A DNA stretch of 64,000 bases from Alphaproteobacteria bacterium (GCA_013288305.1 JABDCD010000001.1:4923-68922); one strand, 5' to 3'. Shown: positions 12,367 to 42,940, counted from the stretch's first letter. The notes: generated by a model from the sequence alone, not told the origin. Made by a program: numbers and translations.

Positions 12367-13617
<1,251 letters not shown>

Positions 13618-13628
<11 letters not shown>

Positions 13629-17613: not shown

Positions 17614-17898
17614 ATGAAGATCACGTATGATCTGAAGAAAAACGCCGCCAATATGGCCAAGCACGGCGTTTCATTCGAGGATGCGTACGAGTTTGATTAT
17701 GCCGATTTTGCCGGCTGCCAATATAAGATCGACAGGCGAAGGGATTATGGCGAAGTGCGCTGGATAGCCACCGGCTATCTTCATAACAGGTTGCATGTGC
17801 TTTGTTATGTGGAAAAATTTAATGGTATCCGCGCCATCAGTTTTCGTAAAGCCAACGAAAGGGAAAGGAAAAAATATGAAAAAAGATCAGTACATTGA
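17614..17898 (+). CDS. brnT: BrnT family toxin (DUF497)
   Basis: YDLKKNAANMAKHGVSFEDA...RWIATGYLHNRLHVLCYVE...IRAISFRKANERERKKY. Confidence 0.85.
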   Translation: MKITYDLKKNAANMAKHGVSFEDAYEFDYADFAGCQYKIDRRRDYGEVRWIATGYLHNRLHVLCYVEKFNGIRAISFRKANERERKKYEKRSVH

Positions 17899-18181
17899 AT
17901 ATGAAGATGGAACGCGCGTGCTTCTGGATGAAGACGACGTGCCGGAACTGACCGACGAGGATTTTAAAAGGATGGTGCCGTTCAGCGCGCTACCCAAATC
18001 GCTGCGGCGCAAATTGTCGGCCATACAAAGCCGAGGTCGCCCGCGCTCGAAAGCGCCCAAGAAGATGATCGCCTTCCGCTTCGCGCCGGATTTGCTTGCC
18101 CACATCAAGGCGTCAGGCCGCGGCTATAACGCCCGCGTCGAGAAACTGCTGCGCCAGGCGTGGGAGCAGGGGTTACTGTAG
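17876..18181 (+). CDS. brnA: BrnA family antitoxin (DUF4415-like)
   Basis: It overlaps the brnT 3' end by 23 nt. Contains GRPRSKAPKKMIAFRFAPDLLAHIKASGRGYNARVEKLLR. Confidence 0.8.
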   Translation: MKKDQYIEYEDGTRVLLDEDDVPELTDEDFKRMVPFSALPKSLRRKLSAIQSRGRPRSKAPKKMIAFRFAPDLLAHIKASGRGYNARVEKLLRQAWEQGLL

Positions 18182-23340: not shown

Positions 23341-23453
23341 ACGCGCCTCCGCTAAAGCAGGGCGATACTGCTGGCGAGTTTCGTATTAAAATACAGAATG
23401 TTACAGCAAGTCGCCCTGAATAACGCAAAACGATTTTTTATATAAGGAATAGT

Positions 23454-23828
23454 TTGATGCCAACCATCAATCAGTTGGTCCGCAGCCCTCGCCGTGCCGT
23501 TGCCAGGCGCAACAAGGTGCCGGCATTGCAGGCCTGTCCGCAGAAACGCGGCGTATGCACGCAGGTGAAAACGGTGACCCCGAAAAAGCCGAACTCGGCG
23601 CTGCGCAAAGTCGCGCGCATCCGGCTCACCAACGGCCACGAAGTATTCGGCTACATCCCCGGCGAAGGCCACAACCTGCAGGAACACAGCGTCGTGCTGA
23701 TCCGCGGCGGCCGCGTCAAGGATTTGCCCGGCGTGCGCTACCACATCATCCGCGGAACCTTGGATACGCAGGGTGTCAAGAACCGCAAGCAATCGCGCTC
23801 GGCCTATGGCGCGAAGAGACCGAAATAG
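23454..23828 (+). CDS. rpsL: 30S ribosomal protein S12
   Basis: MPTINQLVR...[19 protein letters not shown]. Confidence 0.98.
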
Positions 23829-23838
23829 GGGATGAGTT

Positions 23839-24216
23839 ATGGTTGCGTCGAATATTAAACCGACTGTTTCAGTGACTAATTTTTTGAATGCACACTGGAT
23901 CTTGCGAAGAACGAAGGAAGTAGTGGGAACCGCTGAGGAACAACCTTATCTTGTCGATACTACCGATTTACCTCAAATGAGTGAAAATGAACGAGATCAA
24001 TTTGAGCACATGCTCGATGGTGTGCCCATTTCCCAAATTGGTGGGGGACCGGGCTCGGTTAAAACTACTATTGGCGGGTTTGGATTAGCCGCAAAAGAGA
24101 AGATAGTTGCTCTGGTTCATCCGTCTGAAGAGGTTCTTCCTTTTGACGGCGATCAGAGGCCTCTTCGTTTTGAAGGCGATCAGGGATTCCAGCAAACCGG
24201 AACAAGGTCCAGATAA
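23839..24216 (+). CDS. hypothetical protein (AT-shifted orphan between rpsL and rpsG)
   Basis: 125-aa ORF with GGGGA 7 nt upstream of the ATG. It fills the whole rpsL-rpsG intercistronic space. Confidence 0.55.
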
Positions 24217-24232
24217 TCAGGAGTTTATTATT

Positions 24233-24703
24233 ATGTCACGTCGTCACGCCGCACAAAAACGCCAAGTGTTACCGGATGCCAAATTCGGCGATCTGGTACT
24301 CACCAAGCTCATCAACACCATGATGTATAGCGGCAAGAAATCCGCCTCCGAGGCGATTTGCTACGAAGCGCTCGATATCATCAAGAAAAAAACCAGCGCC
24401 GACCCGCTGAAATTTTTCCACGATGCGCTCAATAACATCAAGCCCTCGATCGAAGTGCGCTCCCGCCGCGTCGGTGGCGCAACCTACCAGGTGCCGACCG
24501 AAGTGCGCGAAGAACGCCGCCTCGCGCTGGCGCTGCGCTGGCTGATCGAAGCCGCCCGCGCCCGCAAGGAAAAAACCATGCGCGACCGCATCGCCAATGA
24601 ACTCATGGACGCGGCGAATGGAAGAGGCGGGGCAGTTACGAAACGCGAAAATACGCACAAGATGGCGGAAGCGAATAAGGCTTTCAGTCATTATAGGTGG
24701 TAG
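24233..24703 (+). CDS. rpsG: 30S ribosomal protein S7
   Basis: [20 protein letters not shown]...[20 protein letters not shown] lies upstream. Confidence 0.97.
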
Positions 24704-24707
24704 ATCA

Positions 24708-24839
24708 AATCCTGCGAGCCGTGAGGCTGCGCAGGATCAAATAGAAAGAAGAGTTATGAAGGTTGTATTTTTGAATCAAATTGACGGGAGGATCCCGTGC
24801 TCACGTCTTTTGCATATGCAAAAGCCGCGCCACGGGATT
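24708..24839. repeat. ATCCTG hairpin plus a variant ATCCCGTG hairpin, rpsG|fusA
   Basis: aatcctgcgagccgtgaggctgcgcaggatc at 24708-24738; gatcccgtgctcacg...gccacgggatt at 24791-24839. Confidence 0.8.
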
Positions 24840-24845
24840 TGAAAT

Positions 24846-26920
<2,075 letters not shown>

Positions 26921-26921
<1 letters not shown>

Positions 26922-26954
26922 ATCCTGTGGGCCGCGAAGCGGCAGCACAGGATC
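26921..26954. repeat. ATCCTG hairpin 1 directly after the fusA stop
   Basis: aatcctgtgggccgcgaagcggcagcacaggatc. Confidence 0.85.
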
Positions 26955-26961
26955 TGGGAAA

Positions 26962-27123
26962 ATGATGAGTGAAATTGTAGAAAAAGGATTGGAAGATCGA
27001 AAAGATAAATTTGGAATTTCTGAACGCGAAGCCCGTGAAATGTACGAGCGGATGCGGATGAAATATCCGGAGTTTCCAATAAAAGAATGGGAAAAGTTGA
27101 CTAAAAAAGAACTAAACAACTGA
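26962..27123 (+). CDS. hypothetical small protein (53 aa, my own translation; below the ORF-track cutoff)
   Basis: It translates as [53 protein letters not shown]. It is AT-rich and sits between the two hairpin halves at 26921-26954 and 27128-27157. The SD is weak. Confidence 0.4.
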
Positions 27124-27127
27124 ACGA

Positions 27128-27157
27128 GATACTGCGCAGGCTTCGCCTCGCAGGATT
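27128..27157. repeat. ATCCTG hairpin 2 (degenerate), upstream of tuf
   Basis: gatactgcgcaggcttcgcctcgcaggatt. Confidence 0.8.
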
Positions 27158-27175
27158 GAAACGAGGAGCACAATT

Positions 27176-28366
27176 ATGACCAAAGAGACCTTCAAACGTA
27201 CGAAGCCGCATTGCAATATTGGCACGATCGGGCACGTGGATCACGGGAAGACGAGCCTGACGGCAGCCATAACAAAAGTCCTGGCCGAGACCGGCAAGGC
27301 GAAATACACCGCCTACGACCAGATCGACGCGGCCCCGGAGGAAAAGGCGCGCGGCATTACGATTAATACGGCGCACGTCGAGTACGAAACCGACAAGCGG
27401 CATTATGCCCATGTCGATTGCCCGGGCCACGCCGACTACGTGAAGAACATGATCACCGGCGCCGCGCAGATGGACGGCGCTATATTAGTAGTCTCTGCCG
27501 CCGATGGCCCTATGCCGCAAACCCGCGAGCACATTCTATTAGCCAGACAGGTCGGCGTCCCCGCCATCGTCGTGTTCTTGAACAAATGCGACATGGTCGA
27601 TGACCCCGAACTGCTGGAACTGGTCGAGATGGAAGTACGCGAGTTGCTCAACAAGTATAAATTCCCCGGCGACACCATCCCCATCATCAAGGGATCGGCT
27701 ACCTGCGCCCTGGAAGGCAAGTCCCCCGAACTGGGCCATGATGCCATCTTGAAGCTGATGGAAGCGGTGGACAGTACCATTCCCCAACCCGAACGCCCGC
27801 TGGACAAACCCTTCCTGATGCCAATCGAAGACGTGTTCAGCATCTCCGGCAGAGGTACTGTCGTCACGGGCCGCGTCGAGCGCGGCATCGTCAAGGTCAA
27901 CGAGGAAATCGAGATCGTGGGACTAAGGCCCACCCAGAAAACCGTCTGCACCGGCGTCGAAATGTTCCGCAAGCTGCTCGACGAAGGAAGAGCGGGTGAT
28001 AACGTCGGCATTCTCCTCAGAGGCACCAAGCGCGAAGAAGTCGAACGCGGCCAGGTGCTGTGCAAGCCGGGCAGCATCACCCCGCACACCAAGTTCACCG
28101 CGGAGATCTACGTGCTGACCAAGGAAGAAGGCGGAAGACATACTCCCTTCTTCAGCAACTACCGCCCGCAATTTTACTTCCGCACCACCGACGTCACCGG
28201 CAGCCTGACCCTGCCCAAAGGCGTCGAGATGATCATGCCCGGCGACAACGTCACCATCGAAGCCACCCTCATCTCCCCCATCGCTATGGAGGAGGGATTG
28301 AGGTTTGCTATTCGTGAGGGTGGTAGGACCATTGGGGCTGGGGTCGTGGCCAAGGTCGTGGAGTAG
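27176..28366 (+). CDS. tuf: elongation factor Tu
   Basis: [28 protein letters not shown] and NKCD. Confidence 0.98.
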
Positions 28367-28374
28367 GAGGAGTT

Positions 28375-28656
28375 ATGATTGAATCTAACAATAAGAGGGA
28401 AACTGCGCTGGTAAGACGCATAAAAGCTGCGACTGATCCGGCGAAACAATCCGAATTTCCACTTGATAAGGCTTTAGTGTTGAATGCCGCGCTTCAGCCT
28501 ATTGCTGAAGCAGTAGACGCACTTTCTGAAAGAGTGCGGCAGATCGAGTCTCATCTCGGTATTGAGCCACCGAGTACTGCAAGTGCCACCGATTTTTTAA
28601 GAGACCGTAGAAAAGCTGAGAAACGTGGTCTTGGCACTAACGGAACAGCTAGGTAA
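28375..28656 (+). CDS. hypothetical protein (AT-shifted orphan between tuf and rpsJ)
   Basis: 93-aa ORF with AGGAGG 5 nt upstream of the ATG. Its stop is 3 nt before the rpsJ ATG. Confidence 0.6.
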
Positions 28657-28659
28657 TTT

Positions 28660-28977
28660 ATGCAAAACCAGAAAATCAGAATTTGGCTCAAGGCTTTCGA
28701 CCACCGCGTGCTCGACCAGAGCACGGCGGAGATCGTGAGCACGGCCAAGCGCACCGGTGCAAATGTGGTGGGGCCGATTCCGCTGCCGCGCCGCATTCAG
28801 CGTTATACGGTCAACCGCTCGCCGCACATCGACAAGAAATCGCGCGAGCAGTTCGAAATCCGCACGCACAAGCGCCTGATCGACATTCTCGATCCGACGC
28901 CGCAGACGGTCGATGCGCTGATGAAATTGGATTTGGCCTCGGGCGTGGATATTAAGATTAAGGCGGAGGCGGCTTAG
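28660..28977 (+). CDS. rpsJ: 30S ribosomal protein S10
   Basis: [18 protein letters not shown]...[23 protein letters not shown]. Confidence 0.98.
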
Positions 28978-28981
28978 TACT

Positions 28982-29039
28982 AATCCTGTGGGCGCGAAGC
29001 GCAGCACAGGATCCTGCGCAGGCTTCGCCTCGCAGGATT
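28982..29039. repeat. bipartite ATCCTG hairpin repeat, rpsJ|rplC
   Basis: aatcctgtgggcgcgaagcgcagcacaggatcctgcgcaggcttcgcctcgcaggattt. Confidence 0.88.
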
Positions 29040-29055
29040 TTGAGAGGAAAGAATT

Positions 29056-29793
29056 ATGAGAACCGGACTGATAGCGAAAAAACTGGGCATGACGACCGTC
29101 TATGGCGACGCGGGCGAGGAAACGCCTGTGACCGTTTTGCAGGTGGAAAACTGCCAGGTCGTGGCGCAGAAGACTTTAGGCAGAGACGGCTATACCGCCG
29201 TGCAGCTGGGCGTCGGCGTGGCCAAGGCAAAAAACACCAGCAAAAGTTTGCGCGGTCATTATGCCAAGGCCAAAGTCGAACCCAAGCGCAAGCTCGCCGA
29301 ATTCCGCGTCGCCGAAAACGCGATTCTCGAGCCGGGCGTCGAGCTCGTCGCCAGCCATTTCGTGCCGGGACAATATGTCGATGTCTCCGGCGACACCGTC
29401 GGCAAGGGCTTCGCGGGCGTGATGAAGCGCTGGAATTTCGCCGGGCTGGAAGCGTCGCACGGCGTGTCGGTATCGCACCGCTCGCACGGATCGACCGGCC
29501 AGCGCCAGGATCCGGGCCGCACCTTCAAAGGCAAGAAAATGGCCGGGCACATGGGCACGCGCCGCCGCACCGTGCAGAATCTGGAAATCATGCAGGTCGA
29601 TGACGAGCAGGGCGTGATCATGGTCAAGGGCGCCGTGCCGGGCGCAGAAAACGGTTACGTGCTGGTCAAGGACGCGGTCAAAAAAGGCGCGCACCCGAAA
29701 GCGCCGTATCCGGCGGGTCTTCGGCAAAGTCCTGTGAGCGCCGAAGGCGCTGCACAGGATCCAGCGCAAGATACTCAGGAGGCCAAAAACTAG
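29056..29793 (+). CDS. rplC: 50S ribosomal protein L3 (C-terminal tail reads through a repeat)
   Basis: [16 protein letters not shown]...[13 protein letters not shown]. Confidence 0.97.
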
Positions 29794-29826
29794 ATCCTGC
29801 GCAATCGCAGAGCGATTCGCAGGATT
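29728..29826. repeat. bipartite ATCCTG hairpin repeat, rplC 3' end|rplD
   Basis: agtcctgtgagcgccgaaggcgctgcacaggatc lies in frame in rplC, followed by gatcctgcgcaatcgcagagcgattcgcaggatt. Confidence 0.88.
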
Positions 29827-29841
29827 TGTACGGAGATAATT

Positions 29842-30459
29842 ATGAAAACCAAAGTCATCACACTGGAAAACAAAGCCGCGGGCGAGATCGAACTCTCCAA
29901 GGAGATTTTCGGCCTCGACGTGCGGCAGGACATTCTGCACCGCATGGTCGAGTGGCAGCGCGCCAAAAAACAGGCGGGCACGCACAAGACGAAAACCATC
30001 AGCGAAATTCAGGGCACCACGAAAAAGCCGTGGAAGCAAAAAGGCACCGGCAACGCCCGTGCCGGCAGCTTGCGCTCGCCGCAGTTCCGCGGTGGCGCTA
30101 CGATTTTCGGCCCCGTCGTGCGCAGCCATGCGCAGGGCCTCAACAAAAAATTCCGCAAGCTGGCGCTCAAAATGGCGCTCTCGGCCAAGCACAAGGAAGG
30201 CGCGTTGTTCATCTTGGAGAACGCGCAGATGAAAAAACCGCAGACCAAGGCCATCGCCGCGTCGTTCAAGAAAAACGGCTGGGACAAGCCGCTCATCATC
30301 GACGGCACGCTGGACGTGGCCTTCGCCAAGGCGGCGCGCAATATCAAGCATGTCGACGTGCTGCCCGGCATCGGCGCCAACGTCTACGACATCCTGCGCC
30401 ACAAGCAGCTGGTGCTGACCAAGGATGCCATCGCGCAGCTGGAAGAGAGGCTCAAATGA
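29842..30459 (+). CDS. rplD: 50S ribosomal protein L4
   Basis: [25 protein letters not shown]. Confidence 0.97.
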
Positions 30460-31933: not shown

Positions 31934-31937
31934 TATC

Positions 31938-32016
31938 AATCCTGTGAGCCGCGAAAGCGGCTGCACAGGATCAAAGGTAACAGATCCTGCGCAATCGCTT
32001 CGCGATTCGCAGGATT
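31938..32016. repeat. bipartite ATCCTG hairpin repeat, rpsS|rplV
   Basis: aatcctgtgagccgcgaaagcggctgcacaggatc + gatcctgcgcaatcgcttcgcgattcgcaggatt. Confidence 0.9.
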
Positions 32017-32028
32017 AGGGAGAAGAAT

Positions 32029-32514
32029 ATGAGCAAGAAAAGTTTAGAGCGCCAACTGGAGGCAACGGAAGCCAAAGCGGTCATCAACCGCCTGCGCATT
32101 TCGCCGCGCAAGTTGAACCTGGTGGCGGGCTTGATCCGCGGCATGGATGTCAGCAGCGCGCTGACGCAGCTTTCTTTCAGCGGCAAGCGCATTGCCAATG
32201 ACGTGCGGAAGGGGCTGCAATCGGCCATCGCCAATGCCGAGAATAACCATAATCTGAACGTCGATTCGCTCTATGTGAAAGAGGCCTATGTCGGCAAGAA
32301 CATCGTCATGAAGCGCATGCACACGCGCGGCCGCGGCCGCTCGGCGCGCATCTTGAAACCGTTCGCCAATTTGACGCTGATCGTGCGCGAGCGCGGCGAG
32401 GAAAGTATCAATCCTGTGAGCCGTAAGGCTGCACGGGATCAAGCGAAAAAGTCGAAAGATCCTGTGCAGCGCAAAAAGCGCTCACAGGATTCAAAGAAAA
32501 AGGAGTCCAACTAA
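32029..32514 (+). CDS. rplV: 50S ribosomal protein L22 (long repeat-derived C-terminal tail)
   Basis: [20 protein letters not shown]. The tail from about 32404 is encoded by ATCCTG hairpins. Confidence 0.95.
32410..32491. repeat. bipartite ATCCTG hairpin repeat translated as the rplV C-terminal tail
   Basis: aatcctgtgagccgtaaggctgcacgggatc + gatcctgtgcagcgcaaaaagcgctcacaggatt. Confidence 0.88.
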
Positions 32515-33227
32515 TGGGTCAGAAAGTAAACGCAATCAGCTTCCGCGTCGGCGTCAACAAGAATTGGGATTCGCGCTGGTACGCCAATGATGCCAATTAT
32601 GCCGACCGGTTGCACGAGGATCTGCAGATCACCAAGTATCTGAAAAAGACGCTCGATGCCGCCGGCGTGAGCAAAATCGTCATCGAGCGCCCGACCAAAA
32701 AGGCGCACGTCACGATCCATACGGCGCGTCCCGGCGTGGTGATCGGCAAGAAGGGCGCCGACATCGACAAGATCAAAAAGGACCTCGCCCAATTCACCAA
32801 GGACGAGATCCACGTCAACATCGTGCCGGTGCCCAAGCCCGAGCTGGACGCCACGCTGATCGCCGAATCCGTGGCGCAGCAATTGGAAAAGCGCGTCGCC
32901 TTCCGCCGCGCCATGAAACGCGCCGTGCAGTCGTGCCTGCGTTTGGGCGCGCTCGGCATCCGCATCAACGTCAGCGGCCGCCTCGGCGGCGCCGAAATCG
33001 CGCGCATGGAATGGTACCGCGAGGGCCGCGTGCCGCTGCACACGCTGCGCGCCGACGTCGATTACGGCGTCGCCGAAGCCAAAACCACCTACGGCGTCAT
33101 CGGCGTCAAAGTATGGGTGTTCAAGGGCGAGATCATCGGCAAGAAAAAAGACACGATACATGAGGAACCGGCGGTGGCGAATGAAAATCTGCCGCCTGTG
33201 GAACCGACGCTGGAAACCAAGGAATAA
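32514..33227 (+). CDS. rpsC: 30S ribosomal protein S3
   Basis: [24 protein letters not shown]; KH domain. Confidence 0.98.
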
Positions 33228-33239
33228 CGAGCAACGCAT

Positions 33240-33653
33240 ATGATGAGTCCTAAAAAAACCAAGTACCGCAAGGCGCATAAAGGCCGCATCCGCGGCAACG
33301 CCAAGGGCGGCTTTACGCTGAATTTCGGCGAGTATGGCTTAAAAGCCCTGCAGCCGGAGCGCGTCACGGCGCGGCAGATCGAGGCGGCGCGGCGCGCCAT
33401 TTCGCGCCACGTCAAGCGCGTCGGGCGCATGTGGATCCGCATATTCCCCGACCTGCCGGTGACCAAAAAACCGGCCGAAGTGCGCATGGGCAGCGGCAAG
33501 GGCAGCGTGGAATTCTGGGCCTGCCGCGTCGAGCCGGGCCGCATCATGTTCGAGATCGACGGCGTGCCGGAAGCCGTGGCGCGCGAAGCGTTCGACCGCG
33601 CCAGCGCCAAGCTGCCGATCAAGACCAAATTTGTTGCCAGATTAGCGGAGTAA
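33240..33653 (+). CDS. rplP: 50S ribosomal protein L16
   Basis: [13 protein letters not shown]...[12 protein letters not shown]. Confidence 0.97.
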
Positions 33654-33656
33654 ACT

Positions 33657-33941
33657 ATGAAAATCGCCGAATTACGCGCCAAGAGCGCCGAAGAATTGAA
33701 AGACCTGGTGCTGTCGCTCAAGAAAGAACAGTTCAACCTGCGGATGCAGGCGGCCACCGGTGCGCTGGAAAATAAAGGCCGCTTCAAGATCGCCCGCCGC
33801 ACCATCGCGCGCGCGAAAACTTTATTGGGTGAAACGCCGGGAGCGGTGAAGGCTCCGTCTGCGCCTAAGGCCAAGACTGAGAAAAAGGCTGCGCCGGAGA
33901 AGGCCAAAAAGACCGTAAAAGCCAAGAAAGAAAAGGAATAG
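33657..33941 (+). CDS. rpmC: 50S ribosomal protein L29 (Lys/Ala-rich C-terminal extension)
   Basis: ELRAKSAEELKDLVLSLKKEQFNLRMQ. Confidence 0.93.
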   Translation: MKIAELRAKSAEELKDLVLSLKKEQFNLRMQAATGALENKGRFKIARRTIARAKTLLGETPGAVKAPSAPKAKTEKKAAPEKAKKTVKAKKEKE

Positions 33942-33944
33942 CCT

Positions 33945-34175
33945 ATGCCGAAACGAGTATTGACCGGAGTCGTCGTCAGCGACAAGAACGAGAAAACGGT
34001 GACCGTGCGCGTTGACCGCCGCATGTCGCACCCGATTTACAAAAAAACCATCCAGCGCTCGAAAAAATACGCGGCGCACGACGAGAAGGAACAGTTCAAG
34101 GTCGGCGACAAGGTACAGATCATCGAATCCAAGCCCATCTCCAAGACCAAGCGCTGGGCTGTGGTGTATGAATAA
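33945..34175 (+). CDS. rpsQ: 30S ribosomal protein S17
   Basis: [21 protein letters not shown]...HPIYKK. Confidence 0.97.
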
Positions 34176-34241
34176 TAGGTTCTAGGTGCTAGAGGCTAGG
34201 TTCTAGTTTTAACTAGCACCTAGAACCTAGCCCCTAGCACC
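34176..34241. repeat. tandem-heptamer-arm hairpin, family G (TAGGTTC), rpsQ|rplN
   Basis: taggttctaggtgctagaggctaggttctag tttt aactagcacctagaacctagcccctagcacc. Confidence 0.88.
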
Positions 34242-34264
34242 TTAATGAAAAAACAGAGGAATTT

Positions 34265-34633
34265 ATGATACAGCAACAAACCAATCTCGAAGTCGCCGAC
34301 AATTCCGGTGCGCGGCGTGTGATGTGCATCAAGGTATTGGGCGGTTCGCAGCGGCGGTACGGCTCGGTCGGCGACGTCATCGTCGTCTCGATCAAGGACG
34401 CCATTCCGCGCGGCAAGGTCAAAAAAGGCGAGGTGCACAAGGCCGTCATCGTGCGCACGCGCCGCGATATCCGCCGTCCCGACGGCAGCACGATCCGTTT
34501 CGACAAGAACGCAGCGGTGCTGCTCACGGCGCAAAACGAGCCGATCGGCACGCGCATCTTCGGACCCGTAACGCGCGAACTGCGCGCCAAGCAGTTCATG
34601 AAGATCGTGTCGCTGGCGCCGGAGGTATTATGA
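34265..34633 (+). CDS. rplN: 50S ribosomal protein L14
   Basis: [28 protein letters not shown]. Confidence 0.98.
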
Positions 34634-34690
34634 GGTTCTAGGGACTGGGTTCTAGGTTCTAGTAGCACCTAGCCCCTAGAACCTAGCACC
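34634..34690. repeat. family G hairpin, rplN|rplX
   Basis: ggttctagggactgggttctaggttctag tagcacctagcccctagaacctagcacc. Confidence 0.88.
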
Positions 34691-34712
34691 TAAATTTATA
34701 AGGAATGAGAAA

Positions 34713-35033
34713 ATGACAAAGGCAAAGTTTAAAGTAAAAAAAGGCGACGAAGTCATCGTCATCGCCGGCCGCGAAAAAGGCAAAAAGGGTAAGATCACGC
34801 AGGTGATCACCGAGTCGTCGCGCGTCGTCGTCGAGGGTGTCAACAAGGTGAAGCGCCACCAGAAACCGTCCAAGCTTTCCGGCGGCGGCATCGTCGAGAA
34901 AGAAATGTCGCTGCACGTGTCCAACGTCATGCTGCTCGACCCCAAATCGGGCAAGGGCACGCGCGTCGGCTATAAAATCGAAGGCGAGCGCAAGCTGCGC
35001 ATCGCGCGGAGTTCAGGAGCACCAATCCTGTGA
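34713..35033 (+). CDS. rplX: 50S ribosomal protein L24
   Basis: KVKKGDEVIVIAGREKGKKGKI; KOW motif. Confidence 0.96.
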   Translation: MTKAKFKVKKGDEVIVIAGREKGKKGKITQVITESSRVVVEGVNKVKRHQKPSKLSGGGIVEKEMSLHVSNVMLLDPKSGKGTRVGYKIEGERKLRIARSSGAPIL

Positions 35034-35083
35034 GGCGTGAGCCTGCACAGGATCCTGTGCAGTCGCTTCGCGCCTCGCAGGAC
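35024..35083. repeat. bipartite ATCCTG hairpin repeat, rplX 3' end|rplE
   Basis: aatcctgtgaggcgtgagcctgcacaggatcctgtgcagtcgcttcgcgcctcgcaggact. Confidence 0.85.
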
Positions 35084-35108
35084 TAAGTAAATAGAGAAGG
35101 AAAAGAAT

Positions 35109-35711
35109 ATGGCTAAAACAAATGCAATGAAAAAAGATCCTGCGCCGCCTGGCGGCTCGCAGGATAAATACACGCCGCGCCTCCAGGCCGCCTACGAAAA
35201 AGAGGTGCGTGCGGCGCTGCAGAAGCAGTTCAATTACAAGAACGCCATGCAGGTGCCCAAGCTCGACAAAATCGTCATCAACATGGGCGTCGGCGAAAAC
35301 GTCAACGACAGCAAAACCATCCAGGCGGCGGTCAGCGACATGACGTTGATTGCCGGCCAGAAGCCGCTCATCACCAAGTCGAAAAAAGCCATCGCCAGCT
35401 TCAAGCTGCGCGAAAACCTGGCCATCGGCTGCAAGGTGACGCTGCGCAAGCAGAAGATGTACGAGTTCCTTGACCGGCTGATCAACACCGCCCTGCCGCG
35501 CGTGCGCGATTTCCGCGGCGTGAAAAACAACAGCTTCGACGGCCGCGGCAATTACGCGCTCGGCCTCAAAGAGCAAATCGTGTTCCCCGAGATCAATTAC
35601 GACAAAATCGATCAGGTGCGCGGTATGGACATCATCATCTGCACCACCGCGGGCACCGACGCCGAGGCGAAGGCATTGCTCACCGGCTTCAACATGCCTT
35701 TCATTAAATAG
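35109..35711 (+). CDS. rplE: 50S ribosomal protein L5 (N-terminal extension contains a translated hairpin repeat)
   Basis: [13 protein letters not shown]...[17 protein letters not shown]. There is no ATG downstream of the repeat at 35136-35165, so the repeat must be translated. Confidence 0.95.
35136..35165. repeat. single ATCCTG hairpin inside the rplE 5' coding region
   Basis: gatcctgcgccgcctggcggctcgcaggat, which encodes [10 protein letters not shown]. Confidence 0.85.
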
Positions 35712-35728
35712 AGACGAGTGAGGTGAAT

Positions 35729-35986
35729 ATGTCGATCAATGTCAGTAAAGCGAATGAGCAGATGGAACAGGATTTGCCACTATACCCGGAGAGGCAAAAA
35801 GATGAAAGCTGGGTAGCTTATGTTGAGAACGGTCAGGATGGAGTCAAGAGATTTGGTTTCCATAAAGATAGGGATAAACTATATGCGGCATTGCATAAAA
35901 AAGGCTATACGGATGCTCAGCTGCTGGTCAGCCGTTTCATGCCGCGTGACGACAGTCCTATAGAAGAATATCTTTTGAATAGATAA
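35729..35986 (+). CDS. hypothetical protein (AT-shifted orphan between rplE and rpsN)
   Basis: GAGGTG lies 5 nt upstream of ATG 35729; the track alternative is GTG 35723. 85-87 aa with no motif I recognise. Confidence 0.55.
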   Translation: MSINVSKANEQMEQDLPLYPERQKDESWVAYVENGQDGVKRFGFHKDRDKLYAALHKKGYTDAQLLVSRFMPRDDSPIEEYLLNR

Positions 35987-36004
35987 TTTTAAAGAGAGGT
36001 TATT

Positions 36005-36310
36005 GTGGCTAAAAAAAGTTCGATCAATAAAGGTAAAAACCGCGACAAGCTGGTGAAAAAATTCGCCGTCAAGCGCGCTGCGCTCAAAAAAATTATTATG
36101 AAGCGCGACCTGGCGTTCGACGAGCGCCTGCAGGCCCAGATCGCATTGTCGAAACTGCCGCGCAACAGCAGCAAAGTGCGCCACCGCAATCGCTGTGAGC
36201 TGACCGGCCGCGCGCGCGGCACCTATCGCAAATTTAAATTATCGCGCATCAAATTGCGCGAACTTGGCTCGTTCGGCCGCATTCCGGGGTTGACGAAAGC
36301 GAGTTGGTAG
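36005..36310 (+). CDS. rpsN: 30S ribosomal protein S14
   Basis: GTG start. [25 protein letters not shown]. Confidence 0.96.
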
Positions 36311-36318
36311 AGAGTGTA

Positions 36319-36393
36319 AATCCTGTGAGCCGCGAGGCTGCACAGGATCTAGGAAAAAGAGATCCTGCGCAATCGCATGGCGATTCGCAGGAT
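36319..36393. repeat. bipartite ATCCTG hairpin repeat, rpsN|rpsH
   Basis: aatcctgtgagccgcgaggctgcacaggatc + gatcctgcgcaatcgcatggcgattcgcaggat. Confidence 0.9.
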
Positions 36394-36413
36394 GTAACGA
36401 AGGAGAAGATACT

Positions 36414-36812
36414 ATGTCAATGAACTATAGATTAGCCGACATGCTCGCTCTGATCAAGAACGGCCAGCAGGCTCGCCTTGCCACGGTGCGCTGCCAGGCG
36501 TCGCATTTTCTCGGCGACGTGCTTGACGTACTCAAGAACGAGGGCTTCATCAACGATTACCGCCGCGTCGACCTCGAAAACAACAAGTCCGAATTCGAGA
36601 TCGATCTGAAATACCACGAGGGTGAGCGTGTGATTAAGGAAATCAAGTGCATCTCCAAGCCGGGACGGCGCGTCTATTACAAAATCTCGCGCCTGCCGAA
36701 ATTTTTCAACGGGCTGGGCATCGCCATTTTGTCCACCTCCAAAGGCGTGATGTCGGATTTCGACGCCCGCGTCGCCGGGGTGGGTGGTGAGATATTGTGC
36801 AGTGTGTTTTAG
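36414..36812 (+). CDS. rpsH: 30S ribosomal protein S8
   Basis: ADMLALIKNGQQA...GIAILSTSKGVMSD. Confidence 0.97.
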   Translation: MSMNYRLADMLALIKNGQQARLATVRCQASHFLGDVLDVLKNEGFINDYRRVDLENNKSEFEIDLKYHEGERVIKEIKCISKPGRRVYYKISRLPKFFNGLGIAILSTSKGVMSDFDARVAGVGGEILCSVF

Positions 36813-36816
36813 TTTA

Positions 36817-36873
36817 AATCCTGCGAGCCGCAAGGCTGCGCAGGATACTGTGCAGGCTTCGCCTCACAGGATT
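36817..36873. repeat. bipartite ATCCTG hairpin repeat, rpsH|rplF
   Basis: aatcctgcgagccgcaaggctgcgcaggatactgtgcaggcttcgcctcacaggattt. Confidence 0.88.
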
Positions 36874-36889
36874 TGTAAAGGAGAATAAA

Positions 36890-37423
36890 ATGTCAAGAGT
36901 AGGCAAACAGCCGGTAGCAATCCCTCAAGGCGTCACCGTTACGGTGACCGGCCCGGACGTCGCCGTCAAGGGCGGCAAGGGTGAACTCAAATTCCGCCTG
37001 GCGCCGGAAGTCACCGTCGAAGTCAAGGACGGCAAGGCCTGGGTCAAGCCCGTGAGCAAAGCCGCCCGCGCCCGCATGATGTGGGGCACGTCGCGCCGCC
37101 AGCTTGGCAACATGATCGAAGGCGTGTCGAAAGGCTTCACCACGCGCATGGAAATCCAGGGCGTCGGCTTCCGCGCCAGCGCCGATAAAAATTATCTCAG
37201 CATGGCGCTGGGCTTTTCGCACGAAATCAAATACGCTATTCCCGCCGGCATCGAAATCAAATGCGCCAAGCCGACCGAAATCACCATCAGCGGCTCCGAC
37301 CGCAAGCTGGTCGGCCAGGTCGCCGCGGAAATCCGCTCGCTGCGCAAGCCGGAGCCCTACAAGGGCAAGGGCGTGCGCTATGAAGGGGAATATGTGAGAA
37401 TGAAGGAAGGGAAGAAGAAATAG
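36890..37423 (+). CDS. rplF: 50S ribosomal protein L6
   Basis: [17 protein letters not shown]...[11 protein letters not shown]. Confidence 0.97.
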
Positions 37424-37427
37424 CTTA

Positions 37428-37520
37428 AATCCTGTGAGCCGCGTAAGCGGCTGCACAGGATCATGTAAAACTATTAAAAATGAAAGGATCCTGCGCAACT
37501 GCTCCGCAGTTCGCAGGATT
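37428..37520. repeat. bipartite ATCCTG hairpin repeat, rplF|rplR
   Basis: aatcctgtgagccgcgtaagcggctgcacaggatc + 24-nt AT-rich spacer + gatcctgcgcaactgctccgcagttcgcaggatt. Confidence 0.9.
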
Positions 37521-37529
37521 GATGGAAAT

Positions 37530-37889
37530 ATGACCCAATCCGTAAAATCCAAAGCCCTGTTCGCCCGCCGCAAGCAGCGCGTGCGCACGCACATCAAGAA
37601 GCATGGCCGTGTGCGCCTCAGCGTGTTCCGTTCGGGCAAGCATATCTATGCCCAGCTGATCGACGACGGCAAGGGCGTCACGCTCGCCGCCGCCTCGTCG
37701 CTGGAAAAGGGCAAAAAAGGCAAAGCGGGCGCTACCATCGAATCGGCCAAGGCTGTGGGCGAAGCGATCGCCAAGGCAGCGCAGAAAGCCAACGTCAAAG
37801 AAGTCGTGTTCGACCGCGGCGGCTACCTCTTCCACGGGCGCGTCAAGGCGCTGGCGGACGCGGCGCGCGCCGGCGGATTATCATTCTAA
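37530..37889 (+). CDS. rplR: 50S ribosomal protein L18
   Basis: [13 protein letters not shown]...[18 protein letters not shown]...[20 protein letters not shown]. Start chosen downstream of the repeat at 37428-37520. Confidence 0.95.
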
Positions 37890-37901
37890 CGGAGAAATAA
37901 A

Positions 37902-38477
37902 ATGGCACGTGAACAACGCAACGAAGAACGCAAAGACCGTGAAGGCAGCGAGCTGATCGACAAATTAGTGTCGATCAACCGCGTCGCCAAGGTGGTGAAG
38001 GGCGGTCGGCGCTTCGGTTTCGCGGCGCTGGTCGTCGTCGGCGACGGCAAGGGCAAGGTCGGCTACGGCTCGGGCAAGGCCAAGGAAGTCTCCGACGCCA
38101 TGCGCAAGGCGCTCGACGACGCCAAGAAAAAAATGGTGCGCATCCCGCTACGCGAAGGCCGCACGCTGCACCACGATCTCTATGGCCGCTTCGGCGCCGG
38201 AAAAGTCATCATCCGCACCGCGCCCGTCGGCACCGGCATTATCGCCGGCGGCCCGATGCGTGCCGTGTTCGAGGCACTGGGCGTGCAGGATGTCGTCGCC
38301 AAGTCGGTCGGCACCAGCAACCCGCACAACATGCTCAAAGCCACCTTCAACGCGCTGCACGACATGCGCTCGCCACGCGCGGTGGCCGCCAAGCGCGGCA
38401 AAAAAGTCGGCGAAATCGTCGAACGCCGCGAGGGCAAACCGGCGGAGGAGAATAATAATAAGGAGAAGAAAGCCTAG
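37902..38477 (+). CDS. rpsE: 30S ribosomal protein S5
   Basis: [32 protein letters not shown]. Confidence 0.97.
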
Positions 38478-38484
38478 GCGTCGT

Positions 38485-38573
38485 CGCCCGAATCGCTCTT
38501 GCGATTCTAGGGCGAACTAGAAACTGGATCCCCCTAGAATTTTGCAAGGGCAAAATTCGGAGGATGACGGAAA
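38485..38573. repeat. degenerate two-hairpin element, rpsE|rpmD
   Basis: cgcccgaatcgctcttgcgattctagggcg and ccccctagaattttgcaagggcaaaattcggagg. The stems are imperfect. Confidence 0.55.
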
Positions 38574-38594
38574 TTGATAATAAAGGAATGCAGT

Positions 38595-38879
38595 ATGACA
38601 AGTGAAGCAGCAAAAAAAGAAACCAAGCCGAAAACGGCAAAGCCCGTTGCGGAAAAACCCGCACCGAAAAAACCTGAGGTAAAAAAAGCTCCCTCCGGTG
38701 CAACGGTAAAGATAACGCAAACCACCGGCAGCATCGCGCGCCGCTGGGACCAGGAAGCGACGCTGATCGGGTTGGGCCTGAACAAGCGCCATAAGACGCG
38801 CGTGCTGCAGGATACGCCGGAAGTGCGCGGCATGATTTATAAGGTACGGCATTTGGTGAAGGTGGAGGCAGTTCAATGA
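38595..38879 (+). CDS. rpmD: 50S ribosomal protein L30 (Lys/Pro/Ala-rich N-terminal extension)
   Basis: VKITQTTGSIARRWDQEATLIGLGLNKRHKTRVLQDTPEVRGMIYKVRHLV. Confidence 0.9.
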   Translation: MTSEAAKKETKPKTAKPVAEKPAPKKPEVKKAPSGATVKITQTTGSIARRWDQEATLIGLGLNKRHKTRVLQDTPEVRGMIYKVRHLVKVEAVQ

Positions 38880-39253
38880 GCAAACTCAAGCCCGTTCCTC
38901 CTGCATTTGAAGTGGTTTTCAGTGGAATTGAAAAACCGTTAAACACACGTTCTGTTCGTGGCGGAACATTTGCTGAACAGTTGGCAGCGGGACACATGGA
39001 AGATGCCTACCTACACCTGAAATATTCCGAGCGTGTTAGCGGGATTGATATAGATAAGGTACTGGCGCCATTGAGGGATGCTTTAGAAAATATCTACGAA
39101 AGAATTAGTTTAACATATCATATGGGTACCATAATGTCAGCCGCGCAGCCAGGTCAAAAGCCATTGGGTTCTATGGTTGAAACATTTGATGAGGCCATAA
39201 GATTACGGCTAGACCGCTATTTCCCAAAAGAACAAGTAAGAGCACGAGGATAA
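38876..39253 (+). CDS. hypothetical protein (AT-shifted orphan between rpmD and rplO)
   Basis: Its start overlaps the rpmD stop (ATGA), with GGAGG 9 nt upstream. Its stop is 4 nt before the rplO ATG. 125 aa with no motif I recognise. Confidence 0.6.
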
Positions 39254-39257
39254 TTTT

Positions 39258-39722
39258 ATGCAACTCAACGAACTCAAATCCAATCCCGGCTCGCACCATC
39301 GCAAGATGCGCGTGGGTCGCGGCATCGGCAGCGGCAAGGGCAAAACCTGCGGCCGCGGCGGCAAAGGACAAACCGCGCGCACCGGCGTGCGCATCAACGG
39401 CTTCGAGGGCGGCCAGACGCCGATCCATCGCCGCCTGCCCAAGCGCGGCTTCAACAACCCGACGCGCAAGGAAATCGCCACCGTCAATCTCGGCGCCATC
39501 GAAAAAGCCATCACCGCAGGCAAACTCGACGCCAAGAAGGACATCAACCTGGACGCGCTGAAAGCCGCCGGATTGCTGCGCAAAAATGCTTCGGAAGTCA
39601 AACTGCTGGCCAAGGGCGAACTGAAAGCTAAGATTTCGCTGCACGTCAATTTTGCGTCTGAAGGCGCGAAGGCTGCGGTGGAGAAGGCGGGTGGCAGTGT
39701 CGTCATGAGTCATGGGTCATGA
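39258..39722 (+). CDS. rplO: 50S ribosomal protein L15 (last codons lie in a repeat arm)
   Basis: [21 protein letters not shown]. Confidence 0.97.
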
Positions 39723-39785
39723 GTCATGGGGTTCAAGCGATTCACTCATGACCAATGACCAAAAACCCATGACCCACTTATGACC
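39702..39785. repeat. family D hairpin spanning the rplO 3' end and the secY start codon
   Basis: gtcatgagtcatgggtcatgagtcatgggg ... ctcatgaccaatgaccaaaaacccatgacccacttatgacc. Confidence 0.88.
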
Positions 39786-41126
39786 ACCTCCGCCGCTGAA
39801 CGTCTCGCCGCCAACATGAATTTCGGGGTGTTCTCGCGCGCCACCGACCTGAAGAAGCGCCTGTGGTTTTTGCTGGGCGCGCTCATCGTCTGCCGCATCG
39901 GCACCTACATCCCCGTCCCCGGCATCGACCCGCACATCCTGGCCGAAATCTACGCCAAGCAGCAGGGCGGCGTGCTCGGCGTGTTCAACATGTTCACCGG
40001 CGGCGCGCTGTCGCGCATGAGCATTTTCGCGCTGGCCGTCATGCCCTATATCTCCTCCTCCATCATCATCCAGATCCTGACCGTCGCCGTGCCGCACCTG
40101 GCCACACTCAAAAAAGAAGGCGCGGCGGGCTACCGCAAGATCAACCAATATACGCGCTACGGCACGGTGGTGCTGGCCGCATTCCAGGGTTACGGCATCG
40201 CGGTGGGCCTGCAGGGCATGAGCGGTGCGCACGGCTCGGCGGTGATCGACCCCGGCGCGTTTTTCCTGTTCACCACGACGATAACGCTGGCCGGCGGCAC
40301 GCTGTTTTTAATGTGGCTGGGTGAGCAGATCACGGCGCGCGGCATCGGCAACGGCATCTCGATGATCATCTTCACCGGCATCATCGCCAACCTGCCCAAC
40401 GCCATCGGCCGGACATTGGAATTAGGCCGCACCGGCGTCATCTCGACGCCGTTCATTTTCCTGATTATTATCATCGTGCTGGGCTTGATCGCCTTCATCG
40501 TCTTCATGGAGCGCGCCCAGCGCCGCATCGTCGTGCAATACCCCAAACGCCAGCAGGGCAATAAAATGTTCGGCGGCGAAGCGACGCACATGCCGCTGAA
40601 ACTCAACACCTCCGGTGTCATCCCGCCCATCTTCGCCAGCTCGATTCTGCTGTTTCCGCTCACCATCGCCAGCTTCCATGCTAACGGCGGCACCGGCATC
40701 CTCGCCACCCTGAGCAGCTATCTCGCGCACGGCCAGCCGCTCTACATCGCCTGCTACGTCGCACTCATCGTGTTTTTCAGCTTCTTCTACACCTCCATCG
40801 TGTTCAACCCGGCCGAAAAAGCCGACGACCTCAAAAAAGGCGGCGGCTTCATCGCCGGCATCCGCCCCGGCCAGCAGACGGCGGAATATCTCGATTACGT
40901 GCTGACGCGGTTAACCGCGGTGGGCGCGCTTTACATCGCCCTGGTCTGCGCCATGCCGGAACTCTTCGTCGCTAAATATTCCGTGCCGTTCCAGCTCGGT
41001 GGCACCGGCCTCATGATCGTCGTCAACGTCACCATCGATTTCGTGACGCAGGTGCAGTCGCATCTCTTCGCGCACCAATATGAGGGCTTGATCAAAAAAG
41101 CGAAGCTGAAAGGGAGACTCAAATGA
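39780..41126 (+). CDS. secY: preprotein translocase subunit SecY
   Basis: [28 protein letters not shown]; 10-TM pattern. The ATG lies inside the right arm of the repeat at 39702-39785. Confidence 0.96.
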
Positions 41127-41794
41127 AGATCATTCTTTTAGGGCCGCCGGGCGCCGGCAAAGGCACGCAAGCGGATATTCTCAGGAAGAAGCTCAACATC
41201 GGCAAAATCGCTACCGGCGACATGCTGCGTGAGGCAGTGGCATCCGGCACGCCGCTGGGCAAGCAGGTGCAGGACATCATGGCCAAGGGCCATCTCGTGC
41301 CCGACAAAACGATGATCGATGTGCTGTTCGGCCGCATCCACAAGGCGGATTGCGCGCTGGGCTTTGTCCTCGACGGCTTTCCGCGCACGCTGGCGCAGGC
41401 CGAGGCGCTCGATAGGGCACTGGCCTTTGAGGACGCCGCTATCGACCGCGTCATCGAGTTAAAGGTGGATGACGAAAAGCTGATGAAGCGCATTGTCGGC
41501 CGCTATGCCTGCGCCAAATGCGGCGCCGGCTATCACGACAGCTTCAAGCGCCCGATGCAGGCGGGCGTGTGCGACGCCTGCGGCAGCAAGGAATTTATCC
41601 GTCGCGAGGATGACAAGGCGCAGACGGTGGCCAAGCGTCTGGAGACCTACCATATGCAGACCGAGCCGCTGCTCCCCTATTACCGCGTGCAAGGTAAGCT
41701 ACTGAGTGTCGACGGCATGGCGGAGATCGAGGAAGTAGCCCGGCAGATCGACGAAGTGATGGGAATGGGTAAAAAAAATGCGAAAAACAGTTGA
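41123..41794 (+). CDS. adk: adenylate kinase (Cys4 zinc-lid type)
   Basis: ILLGPPGAGKGTQA, and a lid with CAKCG...CDACG. Its start overlaps the secY stop (ATGA). Confidence 0.96.
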   Translation: MKIILLGPPGAGKGTQADILRKKLNIGKIATGDMLREAVASGTPLGKQVQDIMAKGHLVPDKTMIDVLFGRIHKADCALGFVLDGFPRTLAQAEALDRALAFEDAAIDRVIELKVDDEKLMKRIVGRYACAKCGAGYHDSFKRPMQAGVCDACGSKEFIRREDDKAQTVAKRLETYHMQTEPLLPYYRVQGKLLSVDGMAEIEEVARQIDEVMGMGKKNAKNS

Positions 41795-41840
41795 CGCGGC
41801 CGTAAATATGACTAAAATCCCCATTCCTTTTAACAAAATC

Positions 41841-41915
41841 GGGATTGGGGATTAGGGATTAGGGATTGGAAAATAATGATTTTTTCCCAATCCCCAATCC
41901 CCAATCCCCATCCCC
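41841..41915. repeat. tandem-heptamer-arm hairpin, family H (GGGATTR), adk|rpsM
   Basis: gggattggggattagggattagggattgg / aaaataatgatttttt / cccaatccccaatccccaatccccatcccc. Confidence 0.9.
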
Positions 41916-41930
41916 TAAAAAGAGGTTTCT

Positions 41931-42308: not shown

Positions 42309-42312
42309 AATT

Positions 42313-42404
42313 GGATGTGGGGATGTGGAAGGATGTGGAGATGTGGGGAATAAGAAAGATTTTTTCTTTCTCCACATCCCCACATCTCCATCTCCCCACA
42401 TCCC
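42313..42404. repeat. family A hairpin, rpsM|rpsK
   Basis: ggatgtggggatgtggaaggatgtggagatgtgggg / aataagaaagattttttctttc / tccacatccccacatctccatctccccacatccc. Confidence 0.9.
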
Positions 42405-42418
42405 TCTAGGAGTTTAGA

Positions 42419-42847: not shown

Positions 42848-42853
42848 GAAGAC

Positions 42854-42919: not shown

Positions 42920-42940
42920 GACTTAATTTTAGGAGCAAAC

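Follow-up and report, generated by a model that had tools for sequence, protein, structure and literature searches.

An orphan open reading frame fills the tuf-rpsJ junction of an alphaproteobacterial ribosomal-protein cluster and probably relays translational coupling

This work describes ORF93, a 93-codon orphan open reading frame (ORF) that fills the junction between tuf and rpsJ in an alphaproteobacterial ribosomal-protein gene cluster. The DNA analyzed is a stretch of 64,000 nt from Alphaproteobacteria bacterium (GCA_013288305.1, JABDCD010000001.1:4923-68922), referred to here as the window, in which positions are counted from the first nucleotide. ORF93 is a lineage-specific insertion, low in GC content at third codon positions (GC3), into a tightly coupled junction. 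We judge it probable that this small coding insert of atypical composition serves as a translated wedge, relaying the ancestral coupling of tuf to rpsJ. The locus is best described as an operon-embedded, acquired ORF that has been wired into translational coupling, and ORF93 merits attention mainly as a member of a clade-wide series of such wedges within the most conserved operons of bacteria.

Architecture of the tuf-ORF93-rpsJ junction

The plus strand of the window carries an alphaproteobacterial str-S10-spc-alpha cluster that extends from rpsL (23457) to rplQ (44509). Within this cluster, tuf (27176-28366, plus strand), which encodes the 396-residue elongation factor EF-Tu and matches Pfam GTP_EFTU together with domains D2/D3, ends in GTG GAG TAG, with the last sense codon (GAG) at 28361-28363 and the stop codon (TAG) at 28364-28366. 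The Shine-Dalgarno (SD) sequence of ORF93, AGGAGG (28365-28370, plus strand), overlaps this stop codon, and part of it is supplied by the last tuf codons. Eight nucleotides lie between the tuf stop and the ORF93 ATG, the first base of which is 9 nt past the last base of the stop. ORF93 itself (28375-28656, plus strand), recovered from the ORF list and characterized by the length and periodicity statistics given below, ends with TAA at 28654-28656. The trinucleotide TTT (28657-28659) then separates ORF93 from the rpsJ ATG at 28660; the two ORFs are thus 3 nt apart and in the same frame. The downstream gene, rpsJ (28660-28977, plus strand), encodes the 105-residue ribosomal protein S10 (Pfam Ribosomal_S10, E 7e-38), and its start, ATGCAAAACCAG, is conserved in relatives. 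A preliminary description of this DNA had given the same start, length, and stop for the orphan, the same rpsJ start, and the same 9-nt distance from the tuf stop, all of which agree with the sequence base by base. It had also placed a consensus AGGAGG 5 nt upstream of the ATG; the motif is present, but the spacer (AGTT) is 4 nt long.

SD strength was expressed as the duplex energy with the canonical anti-SD sequence and compared across 33 starts of the cluster. At -10.2 kcal/mol, the ORF93 SD is the strongest of the 33, consistent with the earlier statement that the junction is filled by an ORF bearing a consensus SD. The sole SD-like element for rpsJ, AGGT (28651-28654, plus strand), is weak (-3.7 kcal/mol, third weakest of the 33 starts, with only secY and rpoA weaker) and lies, as had been noted, within the last codons of ORF93, where it covers the final sense codon and the T that begins the stop. 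The geometry of a coupled pair (same strand, stop and start within a few nucleotides, and downstream SD inside the upstream ORF) is present at both ends of ORF93. A consensus scan of 23341-30000 for sigma-70-like promoters and intrinsic terminators found neither, except for a promoter-like site upstream of rpsL, and no inverted repeats were found flanking or within 28367-28659. The same sample was assembled independently in Logan (SRR8432341), and that assembly matches the window with 0 mismatches over 24676-29759, which includes the locus, and over 31987-43982; since two assemblies agree exactly, a chimeric join is unlikely.

Coding character of ORF93 and its predicted product

The inserted segment (28367-28659, 293 nt) has a GC content of 0.46-0.47, compared with approximately 0.60 in its flanks. 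To gauge ORF length, 20,000 dinucleotide-preserving shuffles of this 293-nt gap were used. For a length of at least 93 codons, an ATG-initiated ORF on the plus strand was obtained with P = 5e-5 and an ORF from any start codon, whichever the strand, with P = 7.5e-4; any stop-free run as long as ORF93 was obtained with P = 8e-3. The presence of an ORF spanning the tuf-rpsJ gap is not due to chance. Periodicity was assessed with a codon-position nucleotide model trained on the other low-GC genes of the window, mainly the Fic gene and a hisS-like gene. This model preferred the reading frame of ORF93 by 13.7 nats, with P = 0.002 even against shuffles kept stop-free in frame. GC contents at codon positions 1, 2, and 3 are 0.57, 0.48, and 0.35, a coding-type gradient, in a host where GC3 is 0.75-0.85.

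The product of ORF93 has an isoelectric point (pI) of 9.7 and contains no Cys. Single-sequence AlphaFold2 modeling predicts three helices (residues 2-20, 29-61, and 71-85) with a mean predicted local distance difference test score (pLDDT) of 72.8, reaching approximately 90 for residues 40-60, and a predicted template modeling score (pTM) of 0.36. The model is protein-like, with no recognizable fold.

Homology searches were uniformly negative. ORF93 gave 0 matches in Pfam, PHROGs, NCBIfam, and PADLOC, no homologue in a word-indexed search of 5.8 billion clusters, nothing in the PDB by sequence or by Foldseek, and nothing in JGI metagenomes or IMG/VR. With tblastn, no match was found among phage genomes and a single match (E 0.9) among plasmids. 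An exhaustive phmmer search of 1.84 billion representatives returned only a tetratricopeptide-repeat protein and a second tandem-repeat protein; the E values of both were summed over short repeats, and these hits were rejected as spurious. The ORF is an orphan, as had been claimed, with no homologue in any collection searched, and no donor was identifiable among the protein, phage, plasmid, and metagenome collections. When strain variants were sought by exact protein sequence for S10, EF-Tu, L15, and the orphan ORFs of the window (see below), only the same sample was recovered. When the five inserts of the window were compared by blastn and tblastx to the window and the fetched loci, no similarity indicative of paralogy or internal origin was found, and the segment 28367-28659 is single-copy in these sequences, the identical Logan contig (L001/L162) aside.

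The ancestral junction in related genomes

The best matches to EF-Tu and S10 are 84-86% identical and all alphaproteobacterial; no close genome is found among the GTDB species representatives listed, where the best S10 is at 85% and the best EF-Tu at 86%. Closer relatives were gathered by a metagenome scan with L4, the nearest of which have L4 proteins 78-85% identical and EF-Tu proteins 93-94% identical to those of the window. The inserted segment is missing in all relatives, which have 4-6 nt in its place. The junction reads GAG TAA tcatt ATGcaaaaccag in L096 (5 nt) and GAG TAG actc ATG in L084 (4 nt), and the gap is 6 nt in five more relatives (junctions were aligned with L096, L084, L098-L100, L102, and L105). 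The closest relatives lack ORF93 and carry GGAG in their last tuf codons. Read from these junctions, the ancestral state is a tightly coupled tuf-rpsJ pair with GGAG in the tuf end as the SD, and rpsJ was therefore started by ribosomes finishing the upstream gene, a place now taken by the orphan. Further afield, tuf and rpsJ are separated by a median of 37 nt across 52 metagenome loci and of 81 nt across 72 alphaproteobacterial genomes. Where the gap is long in other alphaproteobacteria (165-446 nt), its GC content is host-like, and its longest ORF covers 23-68% of it (87% in one short gap).

These comparisons bear on the earlier suggestion that the orphan occupies a space normally holding the S10 leader, which in Escherichia coli is the site of L4-mediated autoregulation. 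The comparison of the junction across related genomes, which the preliminary description had itself called for, speaks against any such space: with tuf and rpsJ 4-6 nt apart in the closest relatives, there was never an S10 leader here. No Rfam family matched the segment, even with the gathering threshold relaxed to E <= 10 (whether Rfam includes an L4-leader model was not checked), and its RNA folding is no better than that of shuffles (z = -0.66). The L4-binding S10 leader is limited to some orders of Gammaproteobacteria (PMC3616713), the flanking genes here are alphaproteobacterial, and the features of an E. coli-type leader (structured leader, terminator, and gammaproteobacterial range) are absent. 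The right frame of reference for ORF93 is therefore a coupled junction of 4-6 nt, not the L4 leader of E. coli.

Inserted ORFs at other junctions of the clade

Including ORF93, the gene junctions of the cluster hold five ORFs of low GC3 (0.35-0.44), all on the operon strand; the four besides ORF93 had been missed by the preliminary description. ORF125a (23839-24216, plus strand; 125 amino acids, GC3 0.38) covers 93% of the 404-nt gap between rpsL and rpsG (P < 2e-4), a gap of only 9-24 nt in relatives (83 nt in one). ORF87/85 (plus strand, GC3 0.44, SD of -9.3 kcal/mol) lies between rplE and rpsN and can be read either from ATG as 35729-35986 (85 amino acids) or from GTG 35723 (87 amino acids); it is called by public gene callers and forms a singleton cluster among 15 billion proteins. 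ORF125b (38876-39253, plus strand; 125 amino acids, GC3 0.36, SD of -9.3 kcal/mol, length P < 2e-4) lies between rpmD and rplO, with its ATG overlapping the rpmD stop (ATGA) and its TAA 4 nt before the rplO ATG; a structure prediction for its product was uninformative (pLDDT 58). The weakest of the five cases is ORF53 (26962-27123, plus strand; 53 amino acids, GC3 0.35), which lies between fusA and tuf and is flanked by two hairpins resembling repetitive extragenic palindromic (REP) elements; its length is not significant (P = 0.10) and its periodicity has P = 0.016. In all, four of the five ORFs occupy 89-97% of their gaps, with P <= 6e-4 each, and the three strongest SDs of the region belong to three of the five. 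The four sister ORFs matched no family and no homologue, and all five are missing in relatives.

The relatives carry inserts of their own. L082 (Ga0206956_1010) has three, encoding 130 amino acids between rplE and rpsN, 84 between rplR and rpsE, and 87 between rpmD and rplO. Single inserts are found in L086 (139 amino acids, rplE-rpsN), L088 (165 amino acids, rplB-rpsS), L096 (143 amino acids, rpsQ-rplN), and L104 (183 amino acids, rpsG-fusA). An all-versus-all blastp of 13 inserted ORFs, including a looser case in L119, showed them to be mutually unrelated (E > 0.5), and the 15-billion-protein collection contains six of them, each as a singleton cluster. Only one belongs to a known family: the rplE-rpsN insert of L082 (6584-6976) encodes a 23S rRNA intervening sequence (IVS) protein (PF05635, E 2e-38), although it sits at a protein-gene junction and not in rRNA. 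Long inverted repeats bound this gene, and the ORF continues through the 3' repeat arm to stop 2 nt before the rpsN ATG, an extension that fits selection for translation reaching the next start.

The inserts are all nested in the same way. They start 2-17 nt past the upstream stop (with one at 39 nt and one overlapping the stop) and end anywhere from overlap with the next start to 32 nt before it, the exception being ORF53 at 52 nt. The native junction motif, namely a stop (often TAA) followed or overlapped by an SD, 5-9 nt, and ATG, is seen again at both insert ends. Apart from ORF93, the inserted ORFs encode products with pI values of 4.9-9.0. Pooled, 12 of them (window, L082, L086, L088, L096, and L104) have a composition like that of the native proteome, except that Cys accounts for 1 of 1,412 residues compared to 1.0% in native proteins (P = 2e-5).

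To compare junctions across genomes, a gap was considered long at >=240 nt and filled if >=85% of it was covered by a same-strand ORF, and clade relatives were defined by an L4 identity of >=70%. Long gaps are filled in four of five cases in the window and in all seven cases in the clade relatives, giving 11 of 12 for the clade. Outside the clade, none of the nine long gaps among 1,088 junctions is filled (0/7 from 506 junctions of GTDB alphaproteobacteria and 0/2 from 582 junctions of more distant metagenome loci), and the difference is significant (Fisher P = 3.4e-5).

Relay of translational coupling and competing explanations

In the reading that we consider probable, ORF93, having no promoter or terminator of its own, would be cotranscribed with the str and S10 genes. 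Ribosomes ending tuf would meet AGGAGG on its stop codon, restart at ATG 28375, and read through the entire insert to its TAA (28654-28656); there, 3 nt short of the rpsJ ATG, the weak AGGU would aid a further restart. Translated from end to end, the insert would relay the coupling rather than break it; an untranslated insert of 300 nt would cut the chain of gene-to-gene ribosome restarts, whereas a translated one would not. Unlike a translated one, an untranslated insert would also lay the mRNA bare to Rho, with polarity as the consequence. The insertion, its geometry, the signal strengths, the coding-like statistics, and the recurrence across the clade are seen directly in the sequences; from them we infer that ORF93 is most likely translated, that rpsJ expression benefits, and that an essential operon retains only inserts that preserve the relay. 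Such retention would explain why an ORF on the same strand bridges nearly every long gap in the ribosomal-protein operons of the clade from end to end. The further step taken by the preliminary description, that rpsJ initiation depends on ORF93, is, judging from the start signals, plausible but unproven. The ORF93 protein is somewhat more likely to be dispensable cargo than a needed factor.

Several observations weigh against this reading. The region around the rpsJ start is rich in A and U, and its predicted accessibility is average (0.61), such that rpsJ may initiate independently, and the 4-nt spacer between the ORF93 SD and its ATG is on the short side. A GC3 of 0.35 represents poor codon adaptation for an ORF that directly follows the cell's most highly expressed gene. 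No second ORF93 sequence was found. Public gene callers skipped ORF93, ORF53, and ORF125b on identical Logan contigs while calling ORF87, probably because low GC3 is penalized in a high-GC genome. (The contigs are SRR8432341_862 and _708, corresponding to L001/L162 and L163; ORF125a is likewise not on record.) Because gene calls leave most of them out, such ORFs are largely invisible to protein-database searches. Lastly, the rplW-rplB gap of L110 (Ga0206872_10093) is 508 nt long, has a GC content of 0.44, and contains only a 56-amino-acid ORF, from which it follows that unfilled long gaps can exist; this gap might be a decayed wedge or a noncoding element.

Some of these same points would fit an inert remnant, that is, recently acquired and decaying foreign DNA in which the ORF is intact without being effectively translated and rpsJ initiates on its own A/U-rich start. 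The averagely accessible rpsJ start, the codon usage (very poor for the host), the omission of ORF93 by gene callers, and the lack of homologues by which conservation could be seen are all compatible with this explanation. We nevertheless regard it as a minority possibility, since at the ribosome flux of tuf a consensus SD placed directly on the tuf stop makes nontranslation unlikely, the frame is intact up to 3 nt from rpsJ, and the contrast of 11 of 12 with 0 of 9 filled gaps is unexpected for decaying DNA. ORF93 could instead encode a needed small helical protein, such as a partner of the ribosome or EF-Tu, a toxin, an immunity protein, or an anti-phage factor, for which the position provides high, growth-coupled expression and the relay is incidental. 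The protein-like composition and periodicity, the three predicted helices with their well-scored central segment (pLDDT of 72.8 overall and approximately 90 at residues 40-60), and the strongest SD of the cluster would suit such a function. This explanation seems improbable, given that ORF93 is missing from the closest relatives, that each insert in the clade is different and all six in the protein collection are singletons, that Pfam, NCBIfam, PHROGs, PADLOC, and the PDB hold no match, and that the pTM is only 0.36; moreover, the other inserts are not basic in the way of ribosomal proteins, as ORF93 is. A new lineage-specific ribosomal protein, which would be conserved across the lineage and strongly basic, was rejected: ORF93 has a pI of 9.7 but is absent from all relatives, and the other inserts have pI values of 4.9-9.0.

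Two further explanations carry very little weight. That the 293 nt act as RNA, whether as an S10 leader, an attenuator, or a processing site, with the ORF being incidental, draws on a position identical to that of the E. coli S10 leader and a comparable length; we find it very improbable in view of the highly nonrandom ORF and periodicity, the absence of inverted repeats and of a terminator-like site, the Rfam and folding results, and the leaderless relatives of a group outside the gammaproteobacterial range of the L4 leader (PMC3616713). An assembly artifact, in which a chimeric join has placed the segment between tuf and rpsJ, deserves mention because tuf is often duplicated and breaks assemblies, and many related contigs end near rpsJ. 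It is hardly credible here: the independent Logan assembly spans fusA-tuf-ORF93-rpsJ-rplC without mismatch, the ORF fits between the flanking stop and start with single-nucleotide precision, and four more inserts in the window share this architecture.

As to the source of the relayed insert, a foreign origin is favored because low GC marks accessory, probably acquired DNA in this genome, and the GC3 of ORF93 falls in the class of the Fic, BrnTA, and VapB islands of the window. De novo birth or very fast evolution is also possible, given twelve orphan wedges without homologues. Capture of foreign cistrons by microhomology would fit the recurrence of the junction motif at insert ends, although this is speculation. 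A broader proposal, which we put forward tentatively and consider rather doubtful as a whole, is that in one uncultured alphaproteobacterial clade the str, S10, and spc junctions serve as a nursery, or as landing pads, for single-copy ORFs that are unrelated to one another and tolerated only as wedges that are translated end to end and relay coupling. These would arise when foreign cistrons are captured through microhomology at the generic stop-SD-ATG motif, or when benign helical peptides lacking Cys are born de novo. ORF93 would be one member, and the wedges would parallel, at the level of operons, inteins, introns, and IVSs.

Comparison with known systems and implications

The mechanism proposed for ORF93 is ordinary coupling by termination and reinitiation. 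The arrangement at ORF93 resembles translational coupling in ribosomal-protein operons in its shared strand and operon, its 3-nt stop-to-start distance, and the location of the downstream SD inside the upstream coding sequence, and the ancestral tuf-rpsJ pair of relatives has the classical spacing of 4-6 nt. Unlike in those cases, the upstream partner is a unique inserted ORF, apparently spliced into an existing coupled pair, and coupling is here predicted from the sequence. With the E. coli S10 leader, which combines L4 attenuation and translational repression, ORF93 shares only its position directly upstream of rpsJ; the segment here is coding, lacks structure, terminator, and Rfam match, and belongs to an ancestrally leaderless lineage.

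Phage morons are extra genes located between neighbors that are adjacent in relatives, typically with their own promoter and terminator. ORF93 is likewise an extra gene between such neighbors, of lower GC content and without homologues, and the cargo differs among relatives. However, no promoter or terminator was found for it, it resides in a chromosomal core operon instead of a prophage, and it lies at coupling distance at both ends. The ORFs of 23S rRNA IVSs (PF05635, 23S_rRNA_IVP) also insert into highly transcribed, essential operons of the translation machinery, and the genuine PF05635 gene of L082 occupies rplE-rpsN, the very junction that holds an orphan ORF in the window. ORF93, by contrast, lacks both a PF05635 domain and inverted repeats at its flanks and is located in mRNA, not rRNA. 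An element of the REP, REPIN (paired REP), or miniature inverted-repeat transposable element (MITE) type was rejected, as the segment 28367-28659 is not multicopy and REP-like hairpins occur at other junctions but not at tuf-rpsJ.

Inteins, group I introns, and IVSs are elements whose imprecise loss is harmful and whose damage is neutralized by splicing or excision. By analogy only, a wedge would neutralize its own damage by being translated through; unlike these elements, the wedges have no homing enzyme, show no sign of mobility or of a multicopy family, and are each unique. Insertions at the str-S10 boundary are documented, including bfd-bfr in Gammaproteobacteria and ilv-leu genes in Bacilli (PMC8046335). 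Known invasions of the cluster are mostly multigene blocks of known function that lie between operons and tend to disconnect them (PMC8046335). The boundary invaded is the same as for ORF93, but the documented insertions are conserved and multigene, whereas here a single orphan ORF lies at coupling distance and inserts also occur at junctions internal to the S10 and spc operons. A limited literature search found no account of unique ORFs placed at coupling distance within the str, S10, or spc operons, which is weak evidence of novelty.

Ribosomal-protein operons are textbook examples of frozen gene order and tight stoichiometry, which makes their repeated invasion by unique ORFs notable. If the proposed relay is correct, translational coupling would be the constraint that governs the survival of insertions in essential operons. 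ORFs without homologues could then obtain top-level expression on arrival, providing a natural system for the study of how new or foreign proteins are tolerated and domesticated. Since standard gene callers miss most ORFs of this kind, wedges may be underreported elsewhere.

Other features of the window

Two families of GC-rich, REP-like hairpins, AATCCTGTGAGCCG..GGCTGCACAGGAT and GATCCTGCGCAATCGC..GCGATTCGCAGGAT, occur often as doublets at approximately 10 junctions of the ribosomal-protein operons (24699-24747, 26918-26955, 27131-27160, 28981-29040, 29793-29826, 31935-32016, 35017-35082, 36316-36395, 36814-36870, 37427-37520, and 43951-44012). These junctions span only 1-14 nt in relatives. 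At fusA-tuf, a doublet is split by ORF53; at other junctions, the two hairpins directly adjoin. A second type consists of long hairpins whose arms are tandem 7- to 8-nt units, e.g., (GGTTCTA)n..(TAGAACC)n and (GGATGTGG)n..(CCACATCC)n, and these lie between ribosomal-protein genes both here and in relatives. In the window they are located at 2246-2341, 3966-4072, 34177-34236, 34633-34692, 39723-39779, 42305-42404, and 42848-42913; in relatives they were found in L082 (6545-6575 and 6935-6965, bracketing the PF05635 gene), L088, L101, L104, L105, and L110. They may be processing stems of the RNase III type.

In many genes of the operon, C-ending codons fall from approximately 0.45 to 0.08-0.2 over the last 25-28 codons, being replaced by G- and T-ending codons rich in SD-like GGAGG, GAGG, and AGG strings. 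This pattern is found at the tuf end (28283-28366) and also in rpsG, rpsJ, rplC, rplV, rpsC, rpmD, rplO, and rpoA. The last 28 codons of tuf use G- and T-ending synonymous codons, unlike the rest of tuf and unlike its relatives. Such recoding of 3' ends may tune restart at the next cistron. A foreign recombination tract at the tuf 3' end was also considered and was dropped as specific evidence, because C-poor 3' ends are common to many operon genes.

Other low-GC islands of the window encode a Fic/DOC protein (8118-9338, minus strand), a BrnT/BrnA toxin-antitoxin pair (17614-18181, plus strand), a VapB antitoxin (48457-48750, plus strand), a transposase-type helix-turn-helix protein (53768-54205, plus strand), and two unassigned ORFs (2771-3370, plus strand, and 6436-6912, minus strand). 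It is because these islands hold accessory genes that low GC is taken to mark acquired DNA in a genome of approximately 57% GC. Two low-GC genes are of housekeeping type, one histidyl-tRNA-synthetase-like (13600-14943, plus strand) and the other encoding a dCTP deaminase (51158-52393, plus strand). The GC3 of the first is 0.48, compared with approximately 0.8 in its neighbors, and this composition suggests horizontal replacement of core genes. Finally, the region 1312-1469 contains three tandem copies, spaced 54-60 nt apart, of a 44-nt palindrome-containing unit (ACTTGATATCGCAAATTGCGATATCAAGT); the region is GC-poor and overlaps an ORF at 1119-1763, and the units look like repeated protein-binding sites.

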